The position numbers and the translations under genes were made by a program. Below, piece after piece: positions 4,120 to 12,890 of a stretch of DNA of 64,000 nt. The notes beneath the pieces are model-generated. The model worked only from the letters and a program-made list of their open reading frames with translations. It was not told where the DNA came from and made no database searches. This stretch comes from Promethearchaeota archaeon (GTDB lineage Archaea; Asgardarchaeota; Lokiarchaeia; Sigyniarchaeales; SOKP01), in contig JBHLLT010000014.1 of the NCBI GenBank assembly GCA_048938855.1, positions 18,230 to 82,229 of the forward strand. Reading direction: 5' to 3'. Numbering within the stretch: the first letter of the stretch is position 1; each line of letters begins with the position of its first letter.

Positions 4120-4311
4120 ATGATTCCAAAAAAAATTATTGAAAGCTTGATAGATAATCTTGTATATATCTATATAAAAAATCTAGGTAAAGAATTTGCT
4201 GGTAAAATTAATTCTATAACTGATTCTGACATAGTTATTTTAAAAGATAAAAATGAGAATCTTAGTTACATTCCCCTTTCAGAAATAAGTGTTATTACTG
4301 AACGACGATAA
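4120..4311 (+). CDS. Small protein, possible Sm/LSm-like beta-barrel
   Basis: 63 aa; short helix followed by beta-strand pattern VYIYI..EFAGKI..IVIL..YIPLSEISVI. Confidence 0.5.
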   Translation: MIPKKIIESLIDNLVYIYIKNLGKEFAGKINSITDSDIVILKDKNENLSYIPLSEISVITERR

Positions 4312-4442: not shown

Positions 4443-5888
4443 TTGCTAATTAGCATTTTTATAATTTTAGGGTGCTTCATAGCTGTTGTCATTTTAATTA
4501 TTACAAATAAGTTGAATAGAGCAGTTGCATCTTTATTAGGAGCAATAATTACATTCTTTGTGCTTATTTTTATTGAACATTTCGACTTTTCTATAATAGT
4601 AGAATTATTATTTGGATCTCCTCTTGAAGGATTTGTAAATCTCCATTCTTTAATAATGATTATAGGAATGATGATGATTGTGCAAATTGCTCATGAAGCA
4701 GGCACTTTCCAATTTATTGCAGGTAAATTAATTAAGTTATCTGGAGGAAAACCTGTTAATTTAATGATTATCTTCTGTAGTGCGACAGTTTTGATATCTG
4801 CGATATTAAATAACATTTTAACAGTTATAATAATAATTCCTCTTACGATTACAGTTTCAAGAATTTTAAACATAAATCCATCTCCATACATTTTAACTCA
4901 AGCTGTATTAGTCAATATCGGAGGTACTGTCTTTTCGATTTCTTCAATTCCAAATATTTTAATTACAACATATGCAGGAATAGAATTTTTAGAATTCTTC
5001 ATTAATGTTGGATTATTATCCTTTATAGTTTTTATATTTACTCTCATTTTTTTCATTGTATTATATAAAAAGGAATTAATCATTCCAGAAGAGGGCCAAA
5101 AAGCATTAAAAGAATTTGATGTTTGGAATGTTGTTCAAAATAAAAGATTATTATATCAATCATTATCTTCCTTAGTTGGATTATTAATTTTATTAATATT
5201 TATTCCATCATCATTGATTTCACCGGACATCATTGCTTTAACTATTGCTATCATTTTAATCATTTTAACAAGATTAGATCCTAAAGAAATTATAAATAAA
5301 ATCGATTTTGAATTGATTTTTTATCTGCTAGGTATCTTTATAATTGTTGGAGGGCTTGAGGTAACAGGAGCAACAGCGGTTCTTGGTACTTTTATCTTAA
5401 ATATTGGGGGAAACAATTTATTTTTCCAACTTCTCTTGGTATTGTGGTTTTCTGCCTATTTAAGCAGTTGTATCGATAATATTCCAATCACAAAAGTATT
5501 GATTCCTGTTGCAGATACTATGACTAAAACTGCTTCCATATTAAATAGAAGACAAATTTTTTACAGTCTTGCGCTTGGGGCAAACTGGGGAGATAATCTA
5601 ACTCCATTAGGAGATAATATTCTTGTGGTTAATATTGCTGAACAAAATAAGCGACCTATAAGTTTTAAATCGTTTTTTAAATTGGGTTTTGTTACCACTA
5701 ATTATCAGTTAATAATTATATCAATCTACTATTGTTTTATTTATTATATACAAATAGGAATGATTATTTTAGGGATTGTAGGTATAATAATAATAGCCAT
5801 CTACGGTCTCCATAAATTTGGTTCAAAACAAATTAAATCTCATATAAATATAATAGGTATTAAATTAAGAGAAACTATTATAAGGTGA
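4443..5888 (+). CDS. ArsB/NhaD-superfamily (SLC13/P-permease, OCA2-like) ion transporter
   Basis: More than 12 TM segments; LNNILTV..P, NIGGT..S.PNI, IDNIP and LGANWGDNLTPLG motifs. Confidence 0.85.
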   Translation: MLISIFIILGCFIAVVILIITNKLNRAVASLLGAIITFFVLIFIEHFDFSIIVELLFGSPLEGFVNLHSLIMIIGMMMIVQIAHEAGTFQFIAGKLIKLSGGKPVNLMIIFCSATVLISAILNNILTVIIIIPLTITVSRILNINPSPYILTQAVLVNIGGTVFSISSIPNILITTYAGIEFLEFFINVGLLSFIVFIFTLIFFIVLYKKELIIPEEGQKALKEFDVWNVVQNKRLLYQSLSSLVGLLILLIFIPSSLISPDIIALTIAIILIILTRLDPKEIINKIDFELIFYLLGIFIIVGGLEVTGATAVLGTFILNIGGNNLFFQLLLVLWFSAYLSSCIDNIPITKVLIPVADTMTKTASILNRRQIFYSLALGANWGDNLTPLGDNILVVNIAEQNKRPISFKSFFKLGFVTTNYQLIIISIYYCFIYYIQIGMIILGIVGIIIIAIYGLHKFGSKQIKSHINIIGIKLRETIIR

Positions 5889-5895
5889 TTTTGAA

Positions 5896-6534
5896 ATGGT
5901 ATTCAAAAATATTCAAAGAATTCAAGCTGCTTTACCAGAAGTTAAGCACATTGCAATGTTCTATAATAATGGTATAATTTTTCAAACAACTTTTGACCAA
6001 GATATTAATATACCAAAACTAGGTGAGAATCTTGCGGAAATTTTAAATCATGCTAGAAAACTCTATGAAATCTCACATTACAATTTTGAAAATTATAAAA
6101 AAATTATTTTTGAGACTTTTGATATGTCTATTATTATTTTAAAGCTTGGTGAAGATAGTAATATTGCCCTTTTTTTTAAGAAAGAAGAAGTACAAGAATT
6201 AAAGTTAACTGCGATAAAAAGATACATCACGAGAATTGAAGAATTAATTGATATGGATGAAAGAGAACTGATTATTCAAGACATACTCTTTAAAGAAGAA
6301 GAAATTAAACAATTAAAAGCTCTACTAACTGAGAATGAAAATGTTACTGAAGAATTAAATAAATTATTAATTAATATAGAGAAAGGAGAAATAGTAGGTG
6401 ATAAAAAAGAAATTATGAGTAAACTAAATAACATTGATATTGATTGTGTAAACTTGAGAAAAGATATAGAAAAACACACTAAGGAAATTGAACAACTAAA
6501 AGAAAAAATAGAAAAAAGTCATAAAAAGGAATAA
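5896..6534 (+). CDS. Roadblock/LC7-like N-terminal domain fused to a C-terminal coiled coil
   Basis: First ~118 aa show the alpha-beta-beta-alpha-beta-beta-beta-alpha roadblock pattern; E/K-rich heptads follow. AGGTGA SD site; 7 bp after the transporter. Confidence 0.6.
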   Translation: MVFKNIQRIQAALPEVKHIAMFYNNGIIFQTTFDQDINIPKLGENLAEILNHARKLYEISHYNFENYKKIIFETFDMSIIILKLGEDSNIALFFKKEEVQELKLTAIKRYITRIEELIDMDERELIIQDILFKEEEIKQLKALLTENENVTEELNKLLINIEKGEIVGDKKEIMSKLNNIDIDCVNLRKDIEKHTKEIEQLKEKIEKSHKKE

Positions 6535-6542
6535 GAAAAGAT

Positions 6543-6734
6543 TTATAAATTCAAGTCTTTAGTAACTCCGATTATTACCGGAATTAGAAGAAGTATCGCA
6601 ATGCTTATAATAATAAAAATGACGAGAGATTCATTAGATTCTTTTTTAATTTGTTCAATGCAGATGAAAACGATAAGCATCAAGGATACAATTAAAAGCC
6701 CATATACCAGTAGAATTAAAAAATATTCATTCAA
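6543..6734 (-). CDS. Small 2-TM membrane protein
   Basis: 63 aa, two hydrophobic helices; AGGAG upstream of the TTG start; co-oriented with the coiled-coil genes. Confidence 0.55.
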   Translation of the reverse strand: MNEYFLILLVYGLLIVSLMLIVFICIEQIKKESNESLVIFIIISIAILLLIPVIIGVTKDLNL

Positions 6735-6835
6735 TAGCGTGATACTCCTTAATTTTCTCTCTCTTTTCTAATTCCAATAGTTTAATTTAATTCAAGATAA
6801 ATTTTTTAATATTAAATAAATATCAATTAATATCC

Positions 6836-7513
6836 TCATTCATTTGTAGGAAATTTGGCATTTGGAGGTTTAATTTTTTCTCTTTTAGCTAATTCTTCTG
6901 AAAGTTCTTTTTTTAAGTCAGCTAATTTATCTTCGTCTCCTCCTATCTCAATACTCTTTTTATATACACCCTTTATTGCTGTATTTAATTTTTTTTGTTG
7001 TTTTTGAAATTCCTCTTCTGCTTTTTTCAGTTTTTCCATTGGCGCAGAATTTTTCAAAAGTTTAACATAACTGAACTGTTTTTTACCTAGTAATTCACGT
7101 TCTTTAGCAACGCGCAACTTTTCCTTTATAATATTTAACTCTTCTTCTGCAACTTTACTATCTAAGTACGCTATTTTTCTTTGAACCTCTGCAATTTTAT
7201 TTTTGATCGCTGCAATCTTTAAGCTGTATATTGCATAATCTTCTTCAGATTTTAGATTATTATTAGAAAAAGCTAGGATATCTTTTACTTGTTGTTTGCT
7301 CTCCACTAACTTCTTATTTTTTTCAGCTAAAGTTTGTATAAGCTTAGCTAAATTCATTTCATTTTTAACAAGAATTTCCCCTGCTTTAACGCTTTTTAAT
7401 GTTTGTATAGCTGTGTTTTTTGAATCTTTGCATATTTTTTTTTCTCTTTCTGCAATTTCTAAATTTTTTTGTGCTATTAATTCGATATTTTCAATATTTT
7501 CGATGTTAATCAC
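6836..7513 (-). CDS. Three-helix coiled-coil protein, paralog 1 (BAR-like candidate)
   Basis: Colinear similarity to 7576-8229 and 9287-9955; C-terminal KLADLKKELSEELAKREKIKP. The start may be ATC at 7504. Confidence 0.8.
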   Translation of the reverse strand: MINIENIENIELIAQKNLEIAEREKKICKDSKNTAIQTLKSVKAGEILVKNEMNLAKLIQTLAEKNKKLVESKQQVKDILAFSNNNLKSEEDYAIYSLKIAAIKNKIAEVQRKIAYLDSKVAEEELNIIKEKLRVAKERELLGKKQFSYVKLLKNSAPMEKLKKAEEEFQKQQKKLNTAIKGVYKKSIEIGGDEDKLADLKKELSEELAKREKIKPPNAKFPTNE

Positions 7514-7575
7514 ACCCTTTTTATTTCTTTTGCGATTATCTTAATCTTAAGAAAAAAATTAAAATTTAGGATTTA

Positions 7576-8229
7576 TTATTCAGGTCTGATTTTTTCACGT
7601 TCGGTTAATTTTTCAGAGAGTTCTTTCTTGAGATCCGCCAACTTATTCTGTTTTCCAACAATATTTTTATTCAAATCTATCGCGTTGGTTTCAAGTTTTG
7701 TTAATAATCTCTGAATACCAAGATATGCCTCTTCAACTTTAGAAATTTTATCACTAGGTGCATTAGCATTCATTAATTTTACGTATTCCATCATTTTTTT
7801 GGCTAAATTCCCCCTTTCCTTAGCTTCATCAAGTTTTTTATTAGCAACTTTTACTCTTATCTCGGATATATCCGTCTCCACATATGCAATCCTTTTTTGG
7901 ATATCAGCGATTTCAGTTTGAATTTCTGCAACTTCTTGGTTGTATCGCGCTTGTGCTCTCTCCGCTTTTAAAATTTCATCACCAATTTTTAACATGTCTT
8001 TTACTTTTTCCTTCTTTTCAACTAACTTTTTACTCTTATCTGTTAATCTCTCTCGCACTTTTGCTACTTCAATTTCATTCCTGGCTAGCATTTCTCGAGC
8101 TTTAGCTCTTTTTACTGATTGTTTTGCTAATACTTTCATTTCACTAGCTGTTTCTCTTTCAATTTTAGCTAAATTTGAATTCTCTTCTGCTATTTTTTCA
8201 AATTTTTTAATCTCTTCCATTTTAAACAC
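7576..8229 (-). CDS. Three-helix coiled-coil protein, paralog 2 (BAR-like candidate)
   Basis: Ala every 7th residue; C-terminal KLADLKKELSEKLTEREKIRP. Likely ATG start at 8220 after GAGGTG. Confidence 0.8.
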   Translation of the reverse strand: MFKMEEIKKFEKIAEENSNLAKIERETASEMKVLAKQSVKRAKAREMLARNEIEVAKVRERLTDKSKKLVEKKEKVKDMLKIGDEILKAERAQARYNQEVAEIQTEIADIQKRIAYVETDISEIRVKVANKKLDEAKERGNLAKKMMEYVKLMNANAPSDKISKVEEAYLGIQRLLTKLETNAIDLNKNIVGKQNKLADLKKELSEKLTEREKIRPE

Positions 8230-8301
8230 CTCTTTTCTTAATTCCCTTTTAATTTTAACATGATAAATTTAAATATTCTATTAGAAATACTTCAATTTAG
8301 A

Positions 8302-8469
8302 TTAACTATATATGTCATCATATGTTTCTACTTCTTTTTTGTCATTATAAATTGTGTCAAATTCCTCATTATCATCATGATCTTCATTATCATTAGAAGA
8401 TTCATCTTCTTCATATTCGTCATATTCATAATTATATTTCTTCTTCTTCTCTTTGTTTTTTCTTTCCAT
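8302..8469 (-). CDS. 55-aa acidic microprotein with basic N-terminus
   Basis: Manual translation MERKNKEKKKKYNYEYDEYEEDESSNDNEDHDDNEEFDTIYNDKKEVETYDDIYS (22 D/E, 7 Y). Absent from the ORF track; co-oriented with the coiled-coil genes. Confidence 0.6.
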   Translation of the reverse strand: MERKNKEKKKKYNYEYDEYEEDESSNDNEDHDDNEEFDTIYNDKKEVETYDDIYS

Positions 8470-8541
8470 TTTGGCTTTTTTACATCCTTAATTCTGTTGT
8501 TTTGTACTTGTCACTATATAATGATTACATGATATTTAAAC

Positions 8542-8557
8542 GTTTTCAATTGAAAAC
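8542..8557. promoter_or_regulatory. Perfect 16-bp palindrome, candidate operator in divergent promoter
   Basis: GTTTTCAATTGAAAAC between the acidic microprotein gene and the RHH regulator gene. Confidence 0.45.
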
Positions 8558-8642
8558 AAATCACAGAAACGATAACCTTATATATTTTGATATCATTGTT
8601 TGATATAAAATAGTTATTTAAAAATGAAAAATCACCTGAAAT

Positions 8643-9197
8643 TTGATGACAAAAAGTAATTTTCTTGGATTTAGACTTTCAGATGTAGTACTTAATAAAC
8701 TTGAGCTACTTGCAAAACAGGAAAATAAAACACGTGGATTGATTGCAAAAGATGCTATCGAACAATGGCTCAATTTAGAATTATTTAATCAAACCAATGA
8801 AATGATAATGATATCAAAATCTATCTTTTCTAAGATCCTTTCTCACTTAGATGATCATACTATGGAGATTATTGCTAAAGATTTTGCAGATTTATTCTCA
8901 GATATAATGAAATTCTCAACTGCGAAACCTATGAATGAAGAAACCTTGAAATCACATACAACTTTTTTAATTAATTTTTTTGGTAAAAATGGATTAAAAT
9001 GGTTTAATACACTTGACGTTCAGAAAAGAGAAAATCTTTTCATATTTAGAGGTTTACACGATATGGATGAGGTTTATTCCCATTTTTTTACAGAATTTTT
9101 TAAGTATCTCCTATCTCAACATTTTGAACTAGATTATACAACAAAATTAGAAGAAAAAACATCTAATTTAGTCCATCTTGAATTTAAAATTAAATAA
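8643..9197 (+). CDS. Ribbon-helix-helix (CopG-like) regulator with C-terminal putative ligand-binding domain
   Basis: N-terminal FLGFRLSDVVLNKLELLAKQENKTRGLIAKDAIEQWL is a typical RHH pattern. Confidence 0.75.
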   Translation: MMTKSNFLGFRLSDVVLNKLELLAKQENKTRGLIAKDAIEQWLNLELFNQTNEMIMISKSIFSKILSHLDDHTMEIIAKDFADLFSDIMKFSTAKPMNEETLKSHTTFLINFFGKNGLKWFNTLDVQKRENLFIFRGLHDMDEVYSHFFTEFFKYLLSQHFELDYTTKLEEKTSNLVHLEFKIK

Positions 9198-9286
9198 GAT
9201 TTAAAAAACAAAAATTAATGTATAAATAAATTTTAATTTTCCTAGCTATAATTTATTGATAAATTCCAATTTATAGAACAGTTATT

Positions 9287-9955
9287 ATGAAGGATTTAAA
9301 TATTATAGAAAAAGAATCTCAAAATAACTTGAAAATTGCTCAGTTTGAAAAAGAATTAGCACTAAAATCAAAAATTAATGCGTTAGCTGAAATTAAAAAA
9401 TCAAAGGCAAGAGAGACCTTAGTAAAAATTGAATATGACATTGCTGACATAAAAAAGGATTTAGCTGAAAAGAGAAGAGTATTAGCTGTTGAAAAATCAG
9501 TAATTAAAAAAAATCAAATTTTAGATTTTTCAGAAGAAGAATTAAAAAATGAAAATAATTATGCCATTTATAACGAGAAGATAGCAGAAAATCAAAAACA
9601 AATTGCTGAAGTTAATAAAAAAATAGCTTCAACCGAAAAGCAAATTGCTGATCAAAAATTAAAATTATCTGAAGAGAAATTAGATGTAGCAAAAGCACGA
9701 GAAAAATTATCAAAAAAACAAAATCTTTATATCAAATTAGCTGGTGGAGCTGCCTCAGAAAGTAAAATTTCGAAAGCTAAAAATAATATGGAAGAACAAA
9801 AAAAAAATTTAATAAAACAGAAAAATGATGTGCTGGAGAAGGAAAAAGATATAAAGAAAAAAGAGAATAAACTTTCCGACCTGAAAAAGGAACTTTCTTT
9901 AATATTAGGAGAAAGAGAAAAAATTAGACATCCAGGAGTTATATTGGCAGAATAA
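9287..9955 (+). CDS. Three-helix coiled-coil protein, paralog 3 (BAR-like candidate)
   Basis: Same heptad architecture; KARETL, YAIYNEKIA and KLSDLKKELSLILGEREKIRHP match the other paralogs. Confidence 0.8.
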   Translation: MKDLNIIEKESQNNLKIAQFEKELALKSKINALAEIKKSKARETLVKIEYDIADIKKDLAEKRRVLAVEKSVIKKNQILDFSEEELKNENNYAIYNEKIAENQKQIAEVNKKIASTEKQIADQKLKLSEEKLDVAKAREKLSKKQNLYIKLAGGAASESKISKAKNNMEEQKKNLIKQKNDVLEKEKDIKKKENKLSDLKKELSLILGEREKIRHPGVILAE

Positions 9956-10030: not shown

Positions 10031-11122
10031 TTAAATCCATCTTTTTCTTTTAAAGAAATACAACATAATAAGAGATATTGCTACCATCACGATTATTAAA
10101 ATTGGATATGCGATGGGAGAAGAAAATTCGGGCATATAAATAAAATTCATCCCATAAAAACCTGCTAGAAATGATATTGGTATGAAAATTGTTGATATAA
10201 TCGTTAAAACTTTCATAATATCATTCATTCTATTGCTCACGCTAGACAAATACATATCCAACATTCCAAAAATGATATCCCGATAATTTTCTAAAAGATC
10301 ACTAATTCTAAAAACGTGATCATATATATCTCTCAAATAGATCTGTAAATCTACTTTTATTAGATGTGATTGTTCACGCTGCAATTTATTGATTATTTCT
10401 CTTATTGGCCAAATTGACTTTCTTATTTCAATTGAAGATCTTTTCAATTGATAAATAAGCTGTAAAGTTTTTGGTTCCGGATTCTTTATTAATAAATCTT
10501 CAATATTTTCTATATCCTCACCTACTTTTTCCAAAATTACAAAATAATCGTCTATTATTATATCAATTAAAACATAAAAGAGATAATCTGCTCCCATAAA
10601 TCGAACTCTTCCTTTTGGAACTTGTATTCTCTCATAAATAGGATCGAAAAGGTTAGTATCTCTCTCTTGGAATGATATTACAAAGCTTTCTCCTAAAATC
10701 AGACTAATTTGTTCAAATTCAATATCTTCTTGTTCTTTATTCCAGACTAATTTGTTTAATACTGCGAAAATAAAGTTTCCATAGTCTTCTAATTTAGGTC
10801 TTTGATTCTGATTTAAAATATCTTCCAATACGAGAGGATGTAAATCAAATTGGCGACCAATCTCTTCAATGACTTTTTCTTCTGCAAGGCCATATACATC
10901 AATCCATCTAACTGAAGGTTTTTCAATTTGAGTAAGATCTATTTTAATATCCTTAAATTCTTGTATATTAAAACGGTCTTCAGTATAATCTGTTACTTTG
11001 ATTTTAATTTTTTCTTTTAACTTATCCCCTGTATAAATTAAAGTTCCCGGAGGAAGTCCAATCTCTTTCTTTCTTTTGCTAGATGGGACCCTTTTATGTA
11101 ATGGTCGAGATAATCTCCTCAA
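10031..11122 (-). CDS. corA: Magnesium/cobalt transporter CorA
   Basis: GLPPGTL, LHPLVLEDI, QRPKLE and YGMNF signature; two C-terminal TM helices. Confidence 0.95.
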   Translation of the reverse strand: MRRLSRPLHKRVPSSKRKKEIGLPPGTLIYTGDKLKEKIKIKVTDYTEDRFNIQEFKDIKIDLTQIEKPSVRWIDVYGLAEEKVIEEIGRQFDLHPLVLEDILNQNQRPKLEDYGNFIFAVLNKLVWNKEQEDIEFEQISLILGESFVISFQERDTNLFDPIYERIQVPKGRVRFMGADYLFYVLIDIIIDDYFVILEKVGEDIENIEDLLIKNPEPKTLQLIYQLKRSSIEIRKSIWPIREIINKLQREQSHLIKVDLQIYLRDIYDHVFRISDLLENYRDIIFGMLDMYLSSVSNRMNDIMKVLTIISTIFIPISFLAGFYGMNFIYMPEFSSPIAYPILIIVMVAISLIMLYFFKRKRWI

Positions 11123-12068: not shown

Positions 12069-12890
12069 TTATTTCGAGGGTTCAATACTTTTAACTAGAC
12101 TTGGAGTGCTAATATCAATACCATATCTTTTCATAGAATTCAAAATACTTAACCTTAAATCAGCTAATATTTTCATCAATAACCTTATATCACGAATAAA
12201 TATGAAAAGAGTATATTCAACAGAGAAATTTTGAAATTCTGTTATCCCAACAAAGGGTTCAGGATCTTTTAGTACTTCTGGGATTGAGTTTGCGGCTTCT
12301 AATAAAGCCTTCTCTACTTTTTCATGATCTTCAGCATAATCTGCAGTAATTTTAATTCTTCTTCTAATTACATCTTTCTTGCCAAGATTTTCAGTTTCTT
12401 CTGAGATTAATTTCTGATTAGGAACTGAAATCCTTATACCATCGAAATCAATTAATATCGTAAAAATTAATTTGATTTCATGAACTTTCGCGATTTTATT
12501 GTTATACATTATATAGTCACCAACAACAAAGGGTCTACTTGACATAATTATAATTCCCGCAATTGCGTTTCCAAATGTATTGATTGCAGCAAAGCCAATA
12601 ATAGTCCCTCCAACAAGTGTAAACAAAGAAGTAATTAAACCAATTGCCTCTACGAATTGGACAAGAATCATGCTAATGATAATTAATATTATTACTATTT
12701 TTATGATTCTCTGTAGATTTCTTGCAGTTCGTTCCTCTAATTTTTCTTGTCTTTGAAGTCTTTTAACTTGTTTTTTAAAAATTATGTAAATTATCCATCC
12801 AATTACTATTGCAATAGCGACTGTTAAGATATTTAATAAATTATAAAAAATCCATCCAAATATGACATCAATAATATTTTGAAATAGCAT
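12069..12890 (-). CDS. mscS: Small-conductance mechanosensitive channel (MscS family)
   Basis: 3 TM helices; GFAA...GN.IAG...RPFVVGD, VPN and PEP motifs. Confidence 0.9.
   Translation of the reverse strand: MLFQNIIDVIFGWIFYNLLNILTVAIAIVIGWIIYIIFKKQVKRLQRQEKLEERTARNLQRIIKIVIILIIISMILVQFVEAIGLITSLFTLVGGTIIGFAAINTFGNAIAGIIIMSSRPFVVGDYIMYNNKIAKVHEIKLIFTILIDFDGIRISVPNQKLISEETENLGKKDVIRRRIKITADYAEDHEKVEKALLEAANSIPEVLKDPEPFVGITEFQNFSVEYTLFIFIRDIRLLMKILADLRLSILNSMKRYGIDISTPSLVKSIEPSK

Follow-up and report, generated by a model that had tools for sequence, protein, structure and literature searches.

A Lokiarchaeia family of coiled-coil proteins, predicted to form BAR-like dimers, encoded near ion-channel and membrane-stress genes

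Models of how eukaryotes arose give a central place to the membrane-shaping capacity of Asgard archaea. The BAR proteins reported from these archaea have so far been recognised by their sequence: Lokiarchaeum has a putative one (PMC4917890), L. ossiferum has two BAR-domain proteins (PMC13716822), and a Vps5-BAR is reported from the Thorarchaeia (PMC10307638). In fungi, the eisosomes, whose proteins Pil1 and Lsp1 have a BAR fold, function in the response to membrane tension and in transporter regulation (PMC7183764). Here we describe three paralogous coiled-coil proteins, invisible to Pfam, that are encoded in a divergent cluster (6543-9955) within a 64,000-nucleotide stretch from a Promethearchaeota archaeon of the class Lokiarchaeia (contig JBHLLT010000014.1, positions 18,230 to 82,229). 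We call the whole stretch the window, and all coordinates refer to it; the genome that it comes from is 3.95 Mb and 97% complete. Our best reading is that the family would form a BAR-like dimeric membrane scaffold for ion and osmotic stress. It draws on structure predictions and on gene neighbourhood, and we put its probability at about one half.

An earlier note on this DNA, made from its letters alone, had listed six open reading frames (ORFs), and all of them are present at the coordinates and on the strands given there. The three paralogues among them are:

6836-7513, minus strand: paralogue 1, 225 aa; minor clade with 4 of 88 tree rows; variable position
7576-8229, minus strand: paralogue 2, 217 aa, basic three-helix bundle (predicted); main clade; usual gene order acidic peptide, coiled-coil protein, two-transmembrane (2-TM) protein
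9287-9955, plus strand: paralogue 3, 222 aa; clade mostly convergent with corA

The three proteins can be aligned over their full length with a single 2-residue indel, and any two of them are 38-44% identical over 210-216 residues (blastp E from 1e-28 to 1e-37). This similarity is specific rather than coiled-coil noise, because a composition-corrected tblastn search finds only these three copies and a fourth paralogue on contig C83, which is the only further copy in the genome. The C-terminal motif KL[AS]DLKKELS..L..REKI[RK] is present in all three. So, the colinearity and the shared motif seen in the earlier note hold, and the similar size holds too, with actual lengths of 217-225 aa rather than ~215-220 aa.

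Paralogue 2 was modelled with AlphaFold2 on a 58-row alignment. The predicted helices span residues 4-75, 84-154, and 159-212 (72, 71, and 54 residues; predicted local distance difference test score, or pLDDT, of 95.5), and helix 3 is one unbroken helix that packs on helices 1 and 2. The top Foldseek rows for this model were nearly all BAR domains, with Pil1/Lsp1 at ranks 2-3. An unbiased wide VIA search placed SNX5 first (Z 13.2, root-mean-square deviation [rmsd] 3.3, 181 residues aligned) and arfaptin next (12.8, 4.4, 191). On VIA re-alignment, every match with Z of at least 11 and at least 170 aligned residues was a BAR domain, including SNX5 (Z 13.4, rmsd 3.2, 180 aligned), arfaptin (12.8, 4.4, 191), FAM92A (12.0, 3.8, 188), endophilin (11.7, 3.5, 192), and Lsp1 (11.3, 3.3, 171), but a Z under about 13 may, as the tool warns, mean only an arrangement that is common for helical bundles. 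The BAR match therefore shows fold class and not kinship.

The homodimer of paralogue 2 was predicted with a score of 0.85, versus 0.00 for the best of 3 controls, and this pass may owe something to resemblance to BAR dimers of known structure. (Of 30 proteins solved as pairs, 20 reached the mark, as did 1 of 23 proteins solved as single chains.) Contacts agreed between runs to at least 98%, with a pLDDT of 91. The predicted dimer is antiparallel about residues 44-48, its interface consists of helix 1, residues 79-96, and residues 173-216, and the helix 2/3 hairpins form its tips. An antiparallel central six-helix bundle with tips from helices 2 and 3 is the layout of a BAR dimer. By prediction, then, the family has both the BAR monomer (an antiparallel three-helix bundle of ~200-250 aa, with Z borderline) and the BAR dimer. 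The earlier note had offered BAR heterodimers as one model for the paralogues; the fold and the dimer geometry are borne out in the models. Members are also basic, with a median net charge of +10 (about the 90th percentile here for ORFs of similar size), and conserved basic residues outside the interface lie on helix 1 (R25, K32, K36, K43, and K57) and near the tips (K132-K164). When helix 1 was compared with helix 2 for a possible internal duplication (offset 94), heptad-preserving shuffles gave p = 0.044, as one of three comparisons.

How does the family compare to described BAR proteins? Like the BAR domains of SNX-BAR proteins, arfaptin, endophilin, and FAM92A, its members are predicted as antiparallel three-helix bundles of ~200-220 aa (170-200 residues aligned at an rmsd of 3.2-4.6 Å) that dimerize antiparallel via the same helices, with what may be a basic surface and basic tips. 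Unlike those domains, they have no Pfam hit, no proline kinks, a longer helix 1, and no PX, PH, or SH3 partner domain, and identity in structural alignments is 7-17%. With Pil1 and Lsp1 they share the form of stand-alone paralogous proteins with a BAR fold, here a predicted one (Lsp1 Z 11.3, again borderline), but no member has a PF13805 hit and the neighbourhood partners are CorA, MscS, and SPFH proteins, so the likeness is analogy only.

The Lokiarchaeia also have a separate family that Pfam does detect (BAR/BAR_3), which we recovered in 52 of 400 genomes, including the window's own genome (on contig C36). The two families share their lineage, their size per domain, and their predicted fold class, but members of the Pfam-detectable family are nearly neutral in charge and carry conserved proline motifs. 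We considered whether they are the same family and rejected this: against a 34-row profile of the known BAR family the profile probability is 0.3-0.9%, and the proline motifs are missing. Nor was the new family found in two single-contig genomes (6.0 Mb and 4.4 Mb) with tandem BARs. The Pfam-detectable BAR gene is single in the window's taxonomic family (G000:C36:2136-2690, a copy that was called as a short ORF) and a tandem double in others (L154:1486-2862; L157); in L155/L156 it converges on an ArsB/NhaD-type permease gene, and in L172 it stands beside GAPN. A Pfam Vps5 search matched 0 of 400 genomes and also none of the controls, and so it is uninformative.

The new family is confined to one class. 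With a 51-row profile, we found it in 84 of 400 Asgard genomes, all within the Lokiarchaeia: 78 of 134 genomes of the window's taxonomic family, and 1 of 4, 2 of 3, and 2 of 2 genomes of three other families of the class. (One carrier genome is labelled Helarchaeota.) The same survey, which scored 7 candidates per genome and so may have missed some, did not find it in the remaining Asgard genomes outside these families. An exhaustive search with hidden Markov models (HMMs) returned a compact group of full-length relatives, followed by generic coiled coils only. Searches of Pfam, NCBIfam, PDB sequences, and ESM Atlas features gave no named match for the three paralogues, again with generic coiled-coil hits only, and in Pfam and NCBIfam there was no confident match to a characterised family of unrelated function. 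The family and its gene module are real and undescribed, as the earlier note had suspected; the supplementary tables of a structure-based Asgard survey and of the L. ossiferum paper could list the family. Seven records that carry members (L002, L006, L008, L009, L018, L020, and L024) are titled Hermodarchaeota, Odinarchaeota, Hodarchaeota, or Thorarchaeota, but these labels look unreliable, because the proteins nest among sequences of the Lokiarchaeia family and no member outside the class turned up in the phylum-wide search. A few copies are broken or truncated: three fragments lie in locus L097 (genome G191), and a 148-aa copy is at L142:7152-7598.

In a tree of 88 members, the window's genes fall in three supported clades, with 25 rows for paralogue 2, 20 for paralogue 3, and 4 for paralogue 1, which is a small and patchy clade. 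The usual unit within the genus is two copies that flank the regulator, and 33 of the 84 carrier genomes have a single match. The co-located paralogues had been taken as a hint of hetero-polymerisation, but a polymer with three obligate components is not supported, because of the single-copy genomes, the patchiness of paralogue 1, and the confident model of paralogue 2 alone as a homodimer. The paralogues are probably homodimers, with heterodimers as an option.

The evidence for a link to ions and osmotic stress comes from the neighbouring genes. Those that flank the cluster in the window are:

4443-5888, plus strand: ArsB/NhaD/CitMHS-type permease, an associated flank gene
5896-6534, plus strand: protein with a roadblock-like N-terminus (by inspection only) and a coiled-coil tail, a flank gene that travels with the permease
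10031-11122, minus strand: CorA Mg2+ channel, the sole CorA found in the genome and the family's tightest neighbour
12069-12890, minus strand: MscS channel, the sole MscS found in the genome

The flanks are thus as the earlier note had described them, with its "P-permease" being of the ArsB/NhaD/CitMHS type. The only CorA, MscS, Hsp20, and Sm-like genes detected in the window's genome all lie within ~10 kb of the cluster. Across genomes, CorA is at most 10 kb from a family member in 47 of 62, as compared to 5 of 48 for a control neighbour, GAPN, so the suspected link to ion and osmotic transport is non-random and is conserved in other genomes. Outside the genus, at least one of CorA, MscS, and the permease lies in the loci we examined in 19 of 27 genomes (including a Helarchaeales genome). 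CorA is near in 15 of the 27, MscS in 14, DUF308/HdeD in 13, and the permease with the roadblock-like protein in 10; the ribbon-helix-helix (RHH) regulator is near in 8, the 2-TM protein in 4, the acidic peptide in 3, Hsp20 in 1, and GAPN in none, and both order and orientation are shuffled.

More divergent members have other partners of this sort. The clade that includes the fourth paralogue has a co-oriented run of coiled-coil protein, SPFH, Usp, and CorA in several genomes; CorA is absent from that site in the window's genome. (The fourth paralogue itself, in the run at L001:6078-8476, and those of L145-L150 head runs with an SPFH/Band-7 protein and Usp.) The most distant members adjoin a ZIP transporter, a P-type cation ATPase, and Hsp20, or else a Na/Ca exchanger and SPFH/NfeD; other distant members have no such ion or stress neighbours. 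SPFH, Usp, HdeD-type, and Hsp20 genes occur reshuffled near the family. As CorA, SPFH, and ion transporters recur in separate contexts while the regulator, the acidic peptide, and the 2-TM protein stay in one branch, the core association is with ion channels and membrane-stress genes, and the other three are additions.

Several other genes recur in these islands. The permease and the roadblock-like protein (together 4443-6534, plus strand; the latter has no Pfam or NCBIfam hit) are found in essentially all loci, including the Helarchaeales one, and are possibly a transporter-regulator pair. A 63-aa Sm/SH3-like protein (4120-4311, plus strand), with weak MM0924 and RimP-C hits, moves inside the island and in several loci lies between the regulator and paralogue 3. 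Unnamed families that recur across genera are a ~215-aa protein with an N-terminal hydrophobic segment (L016:320-967), a ~237-aa multi-TM protein (L012:3304-4017), and a 362-aa protein with a weak Rho_N hit (L012:4053-5141).

We propose that these soluble, basic, Lokiarchaeia-specific three-helix proteins work as a membrane scaffold. Each chain is predicted as an antiparallel three-helix bundle whose antiparallel pairing involves helix 1, the beginning of helix 2, and the latter half of helix 3. The conserved Lys and Arg residues on helix 1 and near the tips would bind anionic membrane lipids, and the dimers would coat or line up on the inner face of the membrane as a flat or gently curved scaffold. 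This scaffold would stabilise the membrane, or organise patches of CorA, MscS, permease, and SPFH proteins, under osmotic or divalent-ion stress. By analogy, its function would be comparable to that of the fungal eisosomes, or to the role of PspA elsewhere.

Several observations weigh against this proposal. First, Foldseek E-values were 3.5e-3 or worse, with template-modelling (TM) scores up to 0.59, and in the ESM Atlas, unnamed bacterial clusters fit the model better (TM scores of 0.73-0.80) than eukaryotic BARs do (0.60-0.61). Second, there is no sequence link to BAR proteins, either to the known Lokiarchaeia family or to the Pfam BAR clan (no hit among 58 members at E < 0.01); the family is BAR-like by prediction yet not recognisable as BAR by sequence. 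Third, because the heptads are unbroken and the helices have no conserved prolines, the predicted dimer may be straight, although flat BARs exist. Residues 1-30 are net acidic, and no N-terminal membrane-inserting helix is evident. Finally, 17 of 36 distant loci lack CorA, MscS, and the permease. At the level of whole genomes, 67 of 134 have both the family and CorA, 11 the family only, 12 CorA only, and 44 neither, but this co-occurrence is confounded by kinship; as GAPN co-occurs too and related genomes are not independent, we do not use it as main evidence. (Among the bacterial clusters, rows 3 and 10 of the ESM Atlas search are uncharacterised proteins with this predicted fold from Myxococcota [240 aa, TM score 0.73] and Bacillota [315 aa, TM score 0.80], possibly bacterial BAR-like families.)

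A different use of the same dimer, unlikely but worth taking seriously, is as an adaptor: a rod that would bind the cytoplasmic part of CorA, or alternatively MscS or the pair of permease and roadblock-like protein, so as to gate or cluster its target, in the way that PhoU-type helical proteins work with transporters, with the BAR likeness due to shared bundle geometry. CorA is indeed the tightest neighbour and appears in two separate gene contexts, transporters of other kinds adjoin distant members, and unkinked helices suggest a rigid rod. However, CorA occurs without the family in those 12 genomes, which include 5 of 7 genomes of one genus; paralogue 3 and corA are usually convergent rather than co-transcribed; and the match to PhoU is poor (TM score 0.22).

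That the family is instead a general-stress holdase or polyanion binder seems slightly less probable still. Here the basic helical dimer would protect proteins or nucleic acids, the acidic peptide would be its polyanion-mimic partner, and the locus would be a stress island (Hsp20, Usp, HdeD-type, and PfpI). The net basic charge, the Usp, DUF308, and PfpI neighbours, and the proteasome-type tail of the acidic peptide would all fit. So would Hsp20: in L002 and L016 it is inserted between the genes for the acidic peptide and paralogue 2, and in L096 and L142 it lies beside the family gene. But the most persistent neighbours are membrane proteins and not chaperones, Hsp20 is near in just 1 of the 27 genomes outside the genus, and the acidic peptide is present in one clade only.

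The earlier note had also raised an ion-storage compartment, and a magnetosome- or acidocalcisome-like scaffold, with cations bound by the acidic peptide and the lumen loaded by the permease and CorA, would account for the clustering of a D/E-rich peptide, small membrane proteins, and ion transporters. We consider it very improbable. The permease's best NCBIfam hit is MamN, but at 122.8 bits this is far below the cut-off of 500; PPK1 and PPK2, for polyphosphate storage, were not found in the 97%-complete genome; gene content and order are loose; and the acidic peptide is conserved at its ends, not in its acidic tract.

Finally, we give almost no credence to a divergent PspA/Vipp1/ESCRT-III member that forms hetero-filaments, as the earlier note had suggested from ESCRT-III/PspA, since the length of ~220 aa, the helix breaks near residues 77 and 156 (similar to PspA), and the stress-type neighbours are set against an hhalign probability of 0.5% with E. 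coli PspA, no PF04012 or Snf7 (PF03357) hit in 58 members, an unbroken helix 3 packed on helices 1 and 2, and two ordinary Snf7 genes elsewhere in the genome. (PspA/IM30/Vipp1 and ESCRT-III proteins are likewise all-helical, with SPFH neighbours and a small membrane-protein partner, but there is no profile similarity and the predicted topology, a closed three-helix bundle, differs. None of their chains appears in the top 50 rows of the three fold lists, though they could rank lower. None of 251 Asgard genomes matched the Pfam PspA/IM30 models, whereas 9 of 14 controls did.)

The remaining elements of the cluster may control or accompany the paralogues:

6543-6734, minus strand: 2-TM protein, 63 aa, with two hydrophobic segments (by sequence); accompanies the paralogue-2 clade
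8302-8469, minus strand: acidic microprotein, 55 aa, with a basic head, a variable D/E tract, and a conserved C-terminal hydrophobic-Tyr-X (HbYX) end (IYS here)
8533-8540, minus strand: conserved TATA-box-like element TTTAAATA, with a probable role for the arm of acidic peptide, paralogue 2, paralogue 1, and 2-TM protein
8541-8558, no strand: palindromic operator candidate TGTTWTCA-NN-TGAWAACA, which abuts the TATA element
8643-9197, plus strand: regulator, 184 aa, with an N-terminal RHH and a C-terminal V4R/H-NOX/TRAPP-like domain

The 2-TM protein has no family match, but its ORF is conserved as a protein in 19 distinct homologues, and it is a possible membrane anchor. The regulator is, by modelling, an RHH protein with a sensor-like domain of the V4R/H-NOX/TRAPP type. 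Its N-terminus is strand-helix-helix in the model (at low pLDDT), RHH_1 hits are weak and found in 3 of 23 members, and its ESM Atlas neighbours carry RHH_1 at 0.92-0.93. The top rows for its C-terminal fold are BcsD (Z 9.2), VirS (7.8), TRAPP (7.6), DmpR/PoxR (6.9), and H-NOX (6.9), and Foldseek finds the same families. (The window's regulator lacks ~7 basic N-terminal residues that most homologues have; an upstream ATG is out of frame, 8615-8648.)

In the divergent intergenic region, the TATA-like element abutting the 18-bp palindrome is conserved in 20 loci. The position of the palindrome covers the expected transcription factor B recognition element, which suggests that the regulator represses the minus arm. 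It would do so by binding the palindrome until a ligand releases it. Control by the regulator would be local, as the palindrome at 8541-8558 is the sole site in the genome that scores strongly and a genome-wide search found no wider operator regulon. Paralogue 3 is frequently separated from the regulator by inserted genes, and it may be transcribed separately. (A sigma-70 promoter scan gave chance-level results; the sigma-70 model is not applicable to archaea.)

The acidic microprotein is conserved as a protein in 30 distinct homologues, with conservation at both ends and a D/E middle of variable length. The penultimate Tyr is present in 29 of the 30 and a hydrophobic-Tyr-X end in 27, as compared to 1.5% of ORFs in the genome; because the homologues are related, this shows conservation of the tail and not independent origin. 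Homologues with such a tail span loci L002-L118. In the window's genome, the PAN-sized ATPase and two Cdc48-like ATPases end in LYS, LYR, and LYR, and short HbYX peptides alone can open the gate of the archaeal 20S proteasome (PMC10349142). Judged from its residues, the acidic peptide may be a 20S-binding peptide or a mimic of the Cdc48 tail, and it may dock on the 20S proteasome by this tail. It ends in Hb-Tyr-X like the known activators (PAN, Cdc48/VAT, Rpt2/3/5, and Blm10), but unlike them it is a disordered-looking 55-aa peptide without an ATPase or ring domain.

These pieces could be joined in one picture, which we offer as speculation and think unlikely as a whole. A second, sequence-independent Asgard BAR-like family would build an eisosome-like scaffold that buffers tension and organises CorA, MscS, and SPFH domains in organisms where no PspA was found. 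Its own RHH-V4R sensor would switch it on, and the 55-aa HbYX peptide would tune the 20S proteasome, so that membrane stress and proteolysis would be linked in one small regulon.

The restriction of the family to the Lokiarchaeia speaks for a lineage invention rather than for the eukaryotic ancestor, and therefore the family has limited weight for eukaryogenesis. Separate from the question of the scaffold, the HbYX microprotein may be a new regulator of the archaeal proteasome. As the family is small, soluble, and tied to a defined set of ion and osmotic genes, it would allow one to ask directly if the BAR architecture has more than one origin, and if archaea use it to control membrane tension.

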